This document shows, one piece after another, positions 12,305-42,840 of a stretch of DNA of 64,000 bases. A program made the translations under genes and the position numbers. Position 1 is the stretch's first letter; every line of letters starts with the position of its first letter. Source of the DNA: Eledone cirrhosa (taxonomy: Eukaryota); NCBI GenBank assembly GCA_964016885.1, contig OZ024758.1, positions 17,298,001 through 17,362,000 of the forward strand, read 5' to 3'. The notes beneath the pieces were generated by a model. It saw only the letters and a list, made by a program, of their open reading frames with translations, was not told the origin of the DNA and did not search any database.

Positions 12305-12555
12305 AAGTTTGAAGACTAAAATCCAAAGAGGGCTCGATAAGGATAAATATATATCAAATATATAAGAACCGTTCTTTGCCAGGGAACGTTTCCACGAACC
12401 AAAATATCGTCTTCCTGTCTTCCTTCGGTTGCAACGTTTTTCAAAATATTTACTTCTGCGTTCACCGATTAATTATTTTAGTTTCAGAAGATCTCGTTAA
12501 GAGTGAAAGCAACGATTCTTTGCTTAAACTTTAATCGGTTATTTTAATATATATA
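12305..12555 (+). mobile_element. Hammerhead-containing repeat (PLE pseudo-LTR or retrozyme-like family H1)
   Basis: Head TGAAGACTAAAATCCAAAGAGGGCTCGATAAGG, a body, then a hammerhead fold at 12464-12539; related copies at 19228-19452, 30296-30450, 39072-39100 (-) and 42790-42832. Confidence 0.75.
12464..12539 (+). ncRNA. Type I hammerhead fold with variant core CAGAAGA
   Basis: ACCGATTAA..AGTTT-CAGAAGA-T-CTC(GTTAA)GAG-T-GAAA-GCAA(CGATTCT)TTGC-TT-AAACT-TTAATCGGT; all three stems form. Confidence 0.7.
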
Positions 12556-12559
12556 TAAC

Positions 12560-13287
12560 TTTGATAGGTTTCGGCCAGTATTGGCCCAGGCCATGTCTAA
12601 CTTAATAGCACCACCTGGCAAAGTCGTACAAATCAGTGTTTGGGCACTATGGCCCACTCGAGCAGACAGTTACCGTTTACGGAGGCATATCCGGGTGTAG
12701 GAGGCTTATGCGGGACTTCTTGAAGGAATTTATCCAAAGTCTTCTTGAACTTGATGGGGTCTGTCTCTGCTTTGATGTGTTTTGGTGTAATGTTAAAGAG
12801 TGCAGGGCCAATTGAGGTGAAATTATTGTGCCGTATTGTTGTTATGTGATGCGAGTGGGATTTTTGTCGTGGGCGGATAGCACGGGGCCCAAGCCTTGGG
12901 TGTACACTAAAGGGGATGCCAACATCATTTGGGATAAGATGATGGAATATTTTCCACATCATACAGATAATGTAGCACTCACGGTGACGTTGAAGAGAAT
13001 AAAGTTTGAGCTTTTCTAATCGACCCCAATAGTCAAGGCCTGTCATGCCAACTATTTTTGTAATTGACCTTTGGGGTGCTTCAACTTTCATGATACTTTG
13101 TTTCGTATGGGGGTGACCACAGTGGACAACAGTATTCAAGGTGGGGTCGGGCAAAAGTGGAGAAGAGAAGGACAACAGTGTGGATATCTCTCAACTGGAA
13201 AGTTCTGAGAATCCAGGAACACATTCTGCGGGCCATATCAACTTTGCTGTTTATATGAGTGGCCCAGCTTATATTGTCCACAAGCAC
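12560..13287 (-). mobile_element. CR1-type LINE ORF2 3' fragment (frameshifted)
   Basis: DNISWATHINSKVDMARRMCSWILRTF..FARPHLEYCCPLWSP/..KVEAPQRSITK..LDYWGRLEKLKLYSLQRHRE..LFNITP..FKKTLDKFL, the typical CR1 post-RT domain. Confidence 0.9.
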
Positions 13288-13410
13288 CCAGCACTCACTG
13301 TAAATGAGGTTGGTGTTAGGAAGGGCATCCAGCTGTAGAAATCAAGCCAGAATCAGTTTTCGTCCCACCCTTGCAAGCAGGGAAAAGCGGACGTAAAATG
13401 AGGATGATGA
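13283..13410 (+). mobile_element. SINE C 3' part with RTE-type tail
   Basis: AGCACCCAGCACTCACTGTAAATGAGGTTGG...CCCACCCTTGCAAGCAGGGAAAAGCGGACGTAAAATG. Confidence 0.85.
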
Positions 13411-13695
13411 TATATATACATCTACATACATATATATATATATACATATACAATCATATATATATATATATATATATATATATATATATACAATCATATA
13501 TATACCATCATCATCATCATCGTTTAACGTCCATCTTCCATGCTAGCATGGGTCTATATATATACAATCATACATATATATATACATATAAATATATATA
13601 TATATATATATATATACAATCATACATATATATATATACATAAATAAATGATATATATATATCAAGATGGATAATGTAGGAAACTAGAGTATGGT

Positions 13696-13790
13696 TATAT
13701 AAAAGAGTCGGGATCCCGACGGGTGAGCCCTTTGCATTTCAACAGCTAGCAGCAGGAGCTCAACTGTCGTAGTCCCGACTCTTTTATATA
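13696..13790. repeat. Short foldback, 18-bp perfect arms
   Basis: TATATAAAAGAGTCGGGA ... TCCCGACTCTTTTATATA. Confidence 0.8.
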
Positions 13791-13899
13791 TGTATATATA
13801 TAGATGTATATATAAATGGTAAACAGAAATAACAACACAATCGGTACAGTATATGGAAGAAATATATTAGCTGAATGCTTGAAATAGCATGAATATAAA

Positions 13900-14503
13900 A
13901 ATAATTGTTTCTACTTTTGGAACAAGGCCAGCAATTACCCAGTGCATTACTGGTACTTTATTTTATCGACCCCGTAAGGATGAAAGGCAAAGTTAACCTC
14001 GGCGGGATTTGAACTCATACCATAAGGGACGGTAATCTCGGTAATCTCAGACCATAAAGGGCTGTAACTCTTTGCTGCAAAGCATGGCGTCTGACCCTCT
14101 ACCGATACTGTCAATCCACCGCCCTTAATAATAATAATAATTCTTTCTACATTTACACAAGGCCAGCAATTACCCAGTGTATTACTGGTACTTTATTTTA
14201 TCAACCCCCTAATAATGAAAAGCAAAGTTAACCTCGGATTTGAACTCAGATCGTAAAGGGCCGTAACTCTATGCTGCAAAGCATGGCGTCTGACCCTCTA
14301 CTGATACTGGCAATCCACCGCCATAATAAAATAATAATTGTTTCTACTTTTTGGCACAAGGCCAGCAATTATCCCAGTGCTTTATTTTATCAACTCCGTA
14401 AGGATGAAAGGCAAAGTTAACCTCGGCGGGATTTGAACTCAGACTGTAAAGGGACGTAACTATGCTAGAAAACATGGCGTCCAACCCTCTACCGATACTG
14501 CCA
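13900..14503 (-). mobile_element. Three head-to-tail SINE A copies
   Basis: Copies at ~13900-14124, 14135-14321 and 14328-14503, joined by (TAA)n tails. Confidence 0.9.
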
Positions 14504-39778: not shown

Positions 39779-40070
39779 CATAGGAGCCATATTTATATGG
39801 AAAAGAAATGAGTTGACTAACAATTTCTTCAGATAAAAATTTCCAATAATCTTCACTGAAGTAGATATAATTTAATGAAGTTTACATTCTGCACAATCAA
39901 CTACATTTCTAATATGTAGGTGTAGTATTTCTTTTACTGACAAGAGGTGATCTATAGAGAATATAAAAATACTTATGGTGCATGATGTTTTATCAAAGAT
40001 TCAGAGTAAAATATACTTTAACTTCATCAACTATTGCATCTTGTAATATCATGAACTATACTATATATAT

Positions 40071-40520
40071 GAAGGTGCATGGCTTAGAGGTTAGAGCATT
40101 GGCCTTGCAAATGAAAGGTTGTGATTTCAATTCTCGGACCGGGTGATGTGTTGTTTCCTTGAGCAAGACACTTTATTTCACATTGCTCCAGTTTACTCAG
40201 CTGTAGAAATGAGATGATAGGACTGGGGTCCCTATCATTCCACTGCAAGGTGGTCGTGGAGGTGCCATGGCAAAAAAGCACCCAGGCCACACTGTAAAGT
40301 GGTTGTGGAGGTGCCACGGCAAAAAAAGCACCCAGCCCACACTGTAAATGAGGTTGGTGTTAGGAAGGGCATCCAGCTGTAGAAATGAAGCCAGAATCAG
40401 TTCCTGTATCAACAAGACAAGGTCAGCTGACCTGGCATTGCCAACAACAGGATAAGCCGTCTAACCCATGCTAGCGTGGAAGAATGGACGTAAAACGGTG
40501 ATGATGATGATGATGATGAT
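40071..40520 (+). mobile_element. SINE C variant with internal duplication and longer tail
   Basis: The CACTGYAARGTGGTYGTGGAGGTGCCAYGGCAAAAAAGCACCCAG segment is present twice. Confidence 0.85.
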
Positions 40521-41384
40521 ACACTTCTTTCACAGCAATGAAGGGGCACCTACATAGTTGCTTAACCTGTTAGAAATACCAGCAAAATCCTCTTCAAATC
40601 ATCATCCTGTGTCTTTATAAAGTAATATATGGTGGGGGTTATGTGGTAAAGATGGCAATGAGTTTGCAGCAATAAAATTCTTCTAATGAAGTAATGGAAT
40701 GACCGTCCATCTTATGCTTAAGTTGCGTGAGTGTGTGTGTGTGTCATCATTGATTCGATTAATGTCTATCTTCCATGCTAGCATGGGTTAGACGGGTATG
40801 TCCCATTCGAGGCAAGTTGAGTCACGTGATTGTGTCTCATATAGGAGAGTTTCTGGTTGGTTTTCTACAGCTGGATGCCCTTTCTAACACAAACCCCATT
40901 GACAGTGTGTGCTGGATGCTTTTTGACGTGCTTTATCATGAAAATATAATAGTAAACATAGAGTAATGTAAATGTTATGTGTGATAATTATGTGAGGTAA
41001 ATCCTTTACCATGAAAATATAATAGTAAACATAGAGTAATGTAAATGTTATGTGTGATAATTATGTGAGGTAAATACTTTACCATGAAAATATAATAGTT
41101 AATATAGAGTAATGTAAATGCTAACGGGTTAAACAATGAATATATATGCGTGTGAGTCAGTGATGGTCGTGTTCTCCCTCAAAACTTATGGTGACTCTAC
41201 AAGTTTTTGTTGTTCTCTGTTTTGGTGCTGTTTTCTGAAGTTTACAAAATTCCTGCCTCACAAATCTCTCCACACAATTGTTTCTCTTTATCTCTCTCAC
41301 TCTTTCCATTTATAATAGTAAATATAGAGTAATGTAAATGATTTAAATTACTTAAAAATAATAGGCATTCTTTCACTGGAAATA

Positions 41385-41570
41385 TAACTTTTTCTACTTT
41401 TGGCACAAGGTCAGCAATTATCCCAGTGTATTACTGGTACTTTATTTTATCGACCTTGTAAGGATGAAAGGCAAAGTTAACCTCGGCGGGATTTGAACTC
41501 AGACCATAAAGGGCAGTAACTCTTTGCTGCAAAGCATGGCGTCCGACCCTCTACCAATACTGCCAATTCA
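41385..41570 (-). mobile_element. SINE A
   Basis: Consensus match; TSD-like TTCACTGGAAATATAA. Confidence 0.9.
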
Positions 41571-42581
41571 CTGGAAATATAATGGAAGGGATTAAACACC
41601 TAAATAAAAAAAACAAAGAATATTCAGTGACTTGAACACCACTGGGAAGAGGTGAACTCAGCTTGGGTTCACCTGCATGCTATGTTAACTGTTCTATGAG
41701 AAGAGAGCAGGTAGTTGTCAAAGAATAGTAGACTAGAGGAACAGAAAACCAGAAATATACAAAATGCAATTCAGCAGAGTATATATAAATCTCATCATTT
41801 GCCAAACATTTCTATTGTACCAAAAGAAAAAAGTAATTTTATACTATGGGAAAACATGAAAAGTACAGCTTTGGTAATATAAGTTTCTCCCTTTTAGGTA
41901 TAATATCTCATTATCTGATGAGTTCCTTCTTTAGGCAGTTAGCCAAATATGGTTTGCTTTCTCTCTTCCATCTCACTCACTCTCTCTCTCTCTCTCTCTC
42001 TCTCTCTCTCTGTATATACACACACACGTGTATCTATACATCACATGCATACACATATGTATGTATATGTGTGTATAAAAATATAGATGTAATATATATA
42101 TATATATGTGTATATATAAATAGAGATGTAATATATATATGTGCATATATATAAATATATATATACACATATACACCTATATACATTCTCTCTCTCTGTA
42201 TATACACACACACATGTATCTATACATCACATGCATACACATATGTATGTATATGTGTGTATGAAAATATAGATGTAATATATATATATATGTGTATATA
42301 TACTTATAGATGTAATATATATATGTGTATATATATATATATATATACACATATACACCTATATACATTGATATATCTATGCATATATAAATATATGTAT
42401 ATATATATATATATATATATATATATATACATACACACACACATATATATGCATATTTTTATATATATATGAGTTTATCCCAGGTTCAATCAGGGGTAAC
42501 CACAGTAAGTAAGGTACTCAATACAAAGCAGAATGAAACAGTTCTAGTCCTGTAGAAGCCTTTTCTATATTATATATATAT

Positions 42582-42771
42582 TAATAATTGTTTCTACATT
42601 TGGCACAATGCCAGCATTTGACCAGTACATTACTGGTACTTTATTTTATCGACCCTCTAAGGATGAAAGGCAAAGTTAACCTCGACGGGATTTGAACTCA
42701 GACTGTAAAGGGACGTAACTATGCGTCAAAGCAAGGTGTCCGACCCTCTACCAATACTGCCAATTCACCGC
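42582..42771 (-). mobile_element. SINE A
   Basis: Consensus match. Confidence 0.9.
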
Positions 42772-42840
42772 CTTTATGTAGTAATAATAATAAATGTGAA
42801 GACTAAAATCCGAAGAGGGGTCGATAAGCATAATATATAT

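Follow-up and report, generated by a model that had tools for sequence, protein, structure and literature searches.

Short hammerhead-bearing repeats in Eledone cirrhosa are probably back-to-back ends of Hydra-clade Penelope-like elements

The present analysis concerns a repeat-rich stretch of 64,000 nt of the Eledone cirrhosa genome (assembly GCA_964016885.1, contig OZ024758.1, positions 17,298,001 to 17,362,000; this whole stretch is called the window below), in which a family of short repeats, H1, lies alongside a fragment of a Penelope-like element (PLE). H1 is built from two kinds of piece, a "head" and an arm that carries a hammerhead ribozyme fold, and all counts given for it cover the window. 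The window contains five copies of the head and three of the hammerhead arm, which are 88-97% identical (BLAST E-values from 1e-14 to 1e-41). The original prediction regarded H1 as a unit copied in permuted order from tandem or circular RNA by the machinery of the PLE, or as the terminal repeat of that PLE. The H1 pieces are as follows, where "tail arm" anticipates our reading of the head as a PLE 3' tail and the scores in bits are those of a tail-motif matrix described below.

12290 to 12372, minus strand: H1 head, read as a PLE 3' tail arm in inverted orientation; left end fixed, at (TA)n; 14.7 bits on the reverse strand, 3.5 as written
12373 to 12448, no strand assigned: "body"; no second copy in the window
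12449 to 12546, plus strand: H1 hammerhead arm; type I fold at 12464-12539; ends in (TA)n
19229 to 19325, plus strand: H1 hammerhead arm, 5'-truncated; (TA)n at its end
19348 to 19412, no strand assigned: spacer of 65 nt, single-copy
19413 to 19463, minus strand: partial tail arm covering only the tail hairpin; the ~40 nt adjoining the usual end are missing
30295 to 30358, minus strand: inverted tail arm; 14.7 bits on the reverse strand
30363 to 30445, plus strand: H1 hammerhead arm; ~4 nt of filler between it and the tail arm
39071 to 39118, plus strand: inverted tail arm fused to a truncated PLE open reading frame (ORF); the head as written is on the minus strand
42778 to 42844, minus strand: H1 tail-only insertion, left part; 11.1 bits reversed, -2.3 as written
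42841 to 43219, minus strand: 3' fragment of a long interspersed nuclear element (LINE), in a TA run within the tail; splits the head
43220 to 43275, minus strand: H1 tail-only insertion, right part; matches the other copies to 43249 and ends in (TG/TA)n

The orders proposed for the first copy (head-body-hammerhead, 12290-12546) and the second (head-hammerhead, 30295-30445) were both recovered, as was a head joined without spacer to the remnant of a GIY-YIG PLE ORF (39118-39071, minus strand). The body is indeed missing from the 30295 copy, but its deletion there is an interpretation, the body being single-copy in the window. At 19229-19463, the claimed hammerhead-spacer-head order is present as an arm, a (TA)n, the 65-nt spacer and a head piece; this last, however, is incomplete: the initial ~40 nt of the head are absent, and it extends to 19463 without entering the body. 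What had been taken for a head-only stub at 42790 is a head split by the 379-nt LINE fragment (97% identical to 50648-51028), and it continues at 43220-43249. The 9 nt after the head at 43240 are the same as the 9 nt that end the 19413 piece (19455-19463), and the body is therefore not the native continuation of the head. The head-body join is present in one of the five head copies, and the body is probably 3' untranslated region (UTR) of the H1 source element, in a putative orientation.

The ends of the pieces have a clear polarity. Three of the five heads begin within ~3 nt of one another, alongside a TA- or TAA-rich flank, and a fourth begins 8 nt further in, while their right ends fall at four to five different points. 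All three arms end in (TA)n, 20-25 nt past the cleavage site, from three different start points, and the head-to-arm join is a different one in every copy. Heads fixed on the left and variable on the right, with arms the reverse, are what two opposite 5'-truncated complementary DNAs (cDNAs) would be expected to give.

The fragment that links H1 to a PLE consists of two parts.

37870 to 38461, minus strand: 3' UTR of a Hydra-clade PLE fragment; (TA)n at its end
38462 to 39072, minus strand: Hydra-clade PLE ORF, 5'-truncated; one frameshift near 38660

The ORF remnant (39072-38462) gave 43 protein matches, the best at 47% identity (E 1.5e-27), and aligns to residues ~508-692 of relatives of ~707 amino acids, that is, to the C-terminal GIY-YIG endonuclease that follows the reverse transcriptase (RT) and thumb; Pfam returned no family for the GIY-YIG fragment. 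It contains the end of the thumb, a CxCX5C linker, GIY-YIG, CxxC and CxH, with CCHH absent, and the CxCX5C, CxxC and CxH motifs are described as defining the Hydra clade (PMC8557442). Further criteria for this clade are the RWK and DKT motifs and a divergent RT4; the window copy is 5'-truncated, and among its 16 relatives of at least 600 amino acids, RW[KR] occurs in 13 and DK[TS] in 12. TA runs flank the fragment at 37870 and 39119, just as the H1 arms end in TA runs, and its 3' UTR holds, by eye, a broken hammerhead remnant at ~37904-37938 (stem I and half a core, GAAA absent). Hence, the proposed link of H1 to PLE machinery is borne out by a Hydra-clade ORF remnant, (TA)n targets, a Hydra-style hammerhead and a tail common to the PLE fragment. 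The proposal that H1 is the terminal repeat of this PLE failed: the H1 hammerhead arm has no significant alignment to 37868-38462 (scores matched by 78 of 300 and 23 of 300 shuffles), so the arm is not a pseudo-long terminal repeat (pLTR) of the copy at 38-39 kb, and only the tail is common to both.

Judged by their sequence layout, the insertions at 12290-12546 and 30295-30445 and the head plus ORF at 39118-37870 are each likely to be two 5'-truncated arms placed back to back. The window provides an internal control in a second hammerhead family, H2, which occurs there in both an in-line and an inverted form.

39132 to 39270, minus strand: H2 in-line copy with tail; canonical CUGAUGA core at 39264
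42475 to 42572, no strand assigned: H2 two-arm copy; reversed tail at 42475-42530 plus hammerhead 3' half at 42531-42572

Analogues were also found among 25 Hydra-type loci (L001-L025), which were obtained from eight assemblies by a profile scan of genome contigs, based on an alignment of 33 of the 43 matching proteins. These loci hold animal-type PLEs with (TA)n microsatellites in eight GTDB representative assemblies, and are likely animal host DNA contaminating symbiont assemblies. A reversed 53-nt tail is fused to a truncated ORF in L002 (77-126), in the same layout as at 39118, and in L012 a reversed tail plus a 51-nt sense end (7852-7709) lies between (TA)n runs, with its in-line parent at 6087-6250. 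An in-line parent is known for the L002, L012 and H2 analogues alike. Among four further two-arm insertions picked from self-matches of the loci, the tail is on one arm only in all four. An inverted 5'-truncated copy and a one-sided tail are already in print for PLEs (PMC8557442; PMC3846280).

Two other kinds of TA-associated sequence in the window may be mentioned here. A third tail family is present as a tail-only copy between TA runs (48720-48787, minus strand) and, at ~57405-57520 (plus strand), as a copy in which the 3' half of a hammerhead precedes the tail motif in line. Fold-back elements lie between TA runs at 37025-37374 and 43290-43933, with arm identities of 93% and 91%, respectively; both have an extension of 45-60 nt on a single arm, no full hammerhead core was found in them, and they are likely PLE two-arm insertions of other families.

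The strand on which the head lies was assessed by means of the tail motif. Among the 46 hammerhead cores of the 25 loci, 17 are followed 52-73 nt on by a sense tail motif and then by (TA)n, with 27-38 nt from motif to TA run in the ten of these that were measurable; 22 reach a TA run before any motif (21 of them at 29-59 nt) and seven reach neither. The core of the motif was upstream of the hammerhead in none of the 46. On the opposite strand it occurs downstream of seven cores, of which some are self-complementary and others are neighbouring insertions. By eye, the motif is also present in three of six published novel Hydra consensi given in PMC8557442, at the 5' start of two. A matrix built from the 25 loci alone, with H1 not included, scored the H1 heads at 14.3-14.7 bits on the reverse strand versus 3.5-4.1 bits as written, which was reached by 17 of 20,000 head shuffles and by two of 771 window tiles, both of them H1 heads. 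Furthermore, the 32 nt from motif to (TA)n in the head are inside the range of the relatives. In the source RNA, head and hammerhead are thus most likely opposite in strand, in which case their order reflects inversion, not circular permutation.

The third-best matrix match in the window, at 36038-36096 (plus strand, 13.6 bits), has no hammerhead that we could find upstream and is either chance or a decayed tail. Of two resemblances seen by eye, that of the head to an FGF-stop coding sequence is chance and was rejected, and that of the body to the Hydra-1_Obim 3' UTR (a reverse purine run and a forward 20-nt stretch) is a weak lead, with one match of the purine run in the 25 loci.

Hammerheads were sought with a type I descriptor in which position 4 was variable, using 40 shuffles as control; it matched four times in the window (three H1, one H2) versus a mean of 0.05 per shuffle. 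Each of the three H1 cores has CAGAAGA in place of CUGANGA, and hence carries U4A. In the first copy the core is at 12485, with predicted cleavage after 12525 and (TA)n 21 nt on. Rfam scans gave no hammerhead family at 12380-12560 or 39135-39275, and for the whole window no hammerhead among the 150 of 368 matches listed, only microsatellite-driven miRNA noise. In the H1 fold, 61 of 63 cells are paired, and two stem pairs are changed on both sides among the three copies, a covariation that is not beyond that of shuffles (reached by 124 of 500) in a set of only three copies. The fold is 2-10 kcal/mol above the minimum free energy, and RNAfold z-scores of ribozymes and heads are weak (-2.25 to +0.5). 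The U4 residue is unchanged in 14 of 14 aligned relatives; one alignment of the relatives was out of register. Mutants of the CUGA turn are reported to have low activity (PMC9901934), and a U4C hammerhead to be weak yet viable (PMC3088659). For U4A, nothing on point was found in the literature searched, and no mention of it was found in PMC3088659. The substitution in all three copies is likely to be crippling, which would make H1 a poor or dead ribozyme.

On the basis of its sequence, H1 likely represents short 5'-truncated insertions made by a Hydra-clade PLE, in which the head would be the 3' tail of the RNA copied on the opposite strand, back to back with a second cDNA carrying the hammerhead. 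From the layout, the polarity of the ends, the strand of the motif and the analogues, we infer an order of priming and an RNA template. The GIY-YIG domain would introduce nicks into the two strands of a (TA)n target, of which one would prime reverse transcription at a distal start site, at the end of the tail, and the other at a proximal site directly behind the hammerhead. Both cDNAs would stop early and their truncated ends be joined. The outcome would be a reversed tail plus arm (12290, 30295), a reversed tail plus ORF (39118) or a tail alone (42778). As is known from PLE biology, the tail of a Hydra PLE is also where the following tandem unit begins; to this extent the original prediction is right, in that the source RNA does cross a unit boundary, but no circle is needed for it.

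This two-primer model would combine the published layout with published data on RT start sites. For PAc (Poseidon, Anolis; Frangieh et al. 2024, PMC11167929), it is reported that two internal RT start sites delimit the tail, that AT-rich targets are used, that both target strands are nicked and extended, and that ribozyme-dead RNA still inserts in vitro, so that insertion proceeds without ribozyme cleavage. PAc differs in belonging to another clade and in its tail, which is 30-40 nt long and lies in the start of the ORF; the tails of the Hydra-type elements analysed here measure ~55-95 nt and contain a conserved hairpin. Reconstitution of inverted joins was not found in that paper. Our literature search found no paper on twin priming of PLEs.

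Several observations weigh against this interpretation. The PLE with which H1 has its tail in common does not match H1 in its 3' UTR or hammerhead, and no in-line H1 copy (hammerhead, then sense tail) was found in the window. The pattern used to extract motifs was written after sight of H1, H2 and the published consensi, and H1 itself does not match it; 14 of the 25 loci come from one assembly. A top match of at least 14.7 bits occurs in eight of 20 shuffled windows, and in a two-block motif scan of the window the score of 15.3 was below the top match of 20 of 20 shuffles. The window-wide score is thus within chance, and the motif test is valid only locally. The 39071 arm is too short for the motif (2.8 bits), the 19413 piece scores 6.1 bits, and the latter is also without the fixed end that the two-arm model predicts. 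Finally, inverted arms have been explained by self-priming on an antisense template (Arkhipova 2013, PMC3846280).

The alternative that follows from this last point, namely that the arms are inverted PLE ends formed by such self-priming, or by separate insertions into one and the same (TA)n site, instead of by two-site priming in one event, is in our view unlikely, but it is the strongest of the competitors. Self-priming has the cited proposal behind it, and PLE ends do accumulate in one another's TA runs. However, no palindrome or TA run is found at the head-arm or head-ORF junctions, and the confinement of the tail to exactly one arm in the four inspected insertions does not fit.

A retrozyme-like origin of H1 from multimeric or circular RNA, with circularly permuted copies, appears very improbable. 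Two features define retrozymes, namely tandem units that each contain a hammerhead and the occurrence of circular RNA (PMC7229834; bioRxiv 10.64898/2026.07.22.740005), and since circles have been proposed earlier for PLEs (PMC4209133), the idea has precedent. In its favour, the hammerhead precedes the head piece at 19229-19463, the H1 unit is within the 150-450 bp size range of retrozymes (PMC7229834), animal retrozymes are reported as derived from PLE pLTRs (bioRxiv 10.64898/2026.07.22.740005), and there are the two stem pairs altered on both sides. The tail motif, however, lies on the strand opposite to the hammerhead, and no H1 array exists in the 64-kb window, none of its 17 tandem repeats with a period of at least 50 overlapping H1. 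Moreover, the joins differ per copy, the spacer is unique and does not lie beside other arms or heads, the 19413 head is incomplete with no run into the body, U4A is present in all cores (with the low activity of CUGA-turn mutants already cited), and the covariation is within the range of shuffles. No matching description of octopus retrozymes or hammerheads was found in the literature searched. A tandem repeat of another kind lies at 61643-62725, where an 83-nt unit that derives from a portion of a dispersed short repeat occurs 13 times (96% matched).

Equally improbable is a fixed linear, non-autonomous element of the miniature inverted-repeat transposable element type, head left and hammerhead right, with copies differing by internal deletions: the 12290 and 30295 copies do have common outer ends and differing insides, but the head's own continuation (19455-19463, 43240-43249) is not body, a PLE ORF is fused to the same head, no terminal inverted repeats were seen in H1, and H2, L002 and L012 have the same pattern with an in-line parent.

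The copy at 19229 requires separate consideration, as its pieces lie within another element.

19125 to 19492, plus strand: Helitron-like element hosting the 19229 H1 pieces; begins with A^TC, has a hairpin and ends in CTAG^T

Helitrons have a 5' TC, a 3' hairpin followed by CTRR, and insert between A and T; we take 19125-19492 to be Helitron-like, as its ends fit these hallmarks. A second Helitron-like element at 4827-5343 (TC start, hairpin, CTAG end) has similar ends. In the 19229 copy, the arms face each other over a TA run and the unique spacer, with their truncated ends outward, and the spacer (19348-19412) is likely target, i.e. Helitron, sequence. Two arms of the kind proposed above would then likely face each other across target DNA, either by neighbouring insertions and a later deletion or by a single event in which the arms were joined to the flanks; the missing ~40 nt at 19413 would need a deletion or internal priming. 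A hammerhead, (TA)n and then a neighbour's reversed tail were also seen in L010, L011, L012 and L022; a fifth such match, in L014, is probably chance. The sense tail and repeated spacer expected of tandem read-through are not seen at 19229.

The tail may hold a clue as to how H1 is mobilised. The heads are identical at 31-34 of 35 nt across H1 and PLE copies; two sites separate H1-linked from PLE-linked heads, and one site conflicts. Complementarity of the tail extends over 10 nt with the stretch behind the PLE hammerhead, versus 5 nt with that behind the H1 hammerhead, and 10 nt were reached by none of 156 cross pairs; among the relatives, tail complementarity averaged 6.3 for own pairs versus 5.6 for cross pairs, a weak trend. 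The 10-nt match lies in the last 40 nt of the PLE (37877-37886) and in the head (39084-39093), and it is possible, from the sequence, that it reflects pairing between post-hammerhead RNA and the tail. In L012 (359-560), the hammerhead end of one family, a (TA)n and then the tail of another follow in line, and at 3703-3930 of L013 a hammerhead end and TA run are likewise followed by a different family's tail or hammerhead; such in-line joins are a possible natural route to chimeric templates. We tentatively raise a further idea, which we hold to be somewhat less probable than its converse: the conserved hairpin of the tail (GCTC...GAGCRCT), located ~30 nt ahead of the distal RT start, may be a portable retrotransposition signal, and H1 a tail-borrowing non-autonomous chimera, in which a foreign and probably ribozyme-dead hammerhead end precedes the tail of the PLE family at 38-39 kb and depends on that tail for its mobilisation. 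The L012 layout at 359-560 would then be a possible precursor. No description of the tail motif was found in the PLE literature searched.

With the Hydra-clade PLEs of Craig et al. (2021, PMC8557442; including Hydra-1_Obim and Penelope-13_HM) as the comparison set, the window elements agree in the C-terminal GIY-YIG with CxCX5C, CxxC and CxH of the window PLE, in the (TA)n targets, and in a predicted sense type I hammerhead near the 3' end, an inverted 5'-truncated copy at the 5' end and a one-sided tail. Unlike these PLEs, H1 has arms of 50-180 nt only, an inverted arm that is tail alone and a U4A core, and H1 and the PLE fragment share the tail, not the hammerhead region; by eye, the window elements also differ from Hydra-1_Obim. 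Against the hammerhead norm of the clade, H2 is canonical, H1 carries U4A and the ORF-bearing copy retains a remnant only. When H1, H2 and the PLE UTR were compared with the 25 loci by nucleotide BLAST, the only matches were TA-rich. Animal non-LTR retrozymes (Cervera and de la Pena 2020, PMC7229834; Li et al. 2026) are described as likewise short, non-coding, AT-rich, PLE-related and equipped with a type I hammerhead; H1 differs from them in being without tandem repeats and without two cores in line, and in its variant core and inverted two-arm layout.

The window also contains LINE remnants at 12580-13190 (minus strand; its 3' end adjoins the first H1 copy, no Pfam hit), 50648-51740 (minus strand; RT plus a PHD-like region, RVT_1 at E 2.8e-07, with a 3' end matching the LINE piece that interrupts the 42790 head) and 55793-57124 (plus strand; zf-RVT ORF).

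H1 thus comprises real repeats with a real PLE link and a known inverted-end architecture, and circular permutation is not supported. Inverted PLE ends can mimic circular permutation, and a repeat should be assigned to its strand before it is classed as a retrozyme. Should the tail motif prove to be an RT recognition signal, it would offer a short sequence with which to test how the tails and inverted arms of PLEs arise, and also how PLEs may mobilise foreign sequence without ribozyme cleavage.

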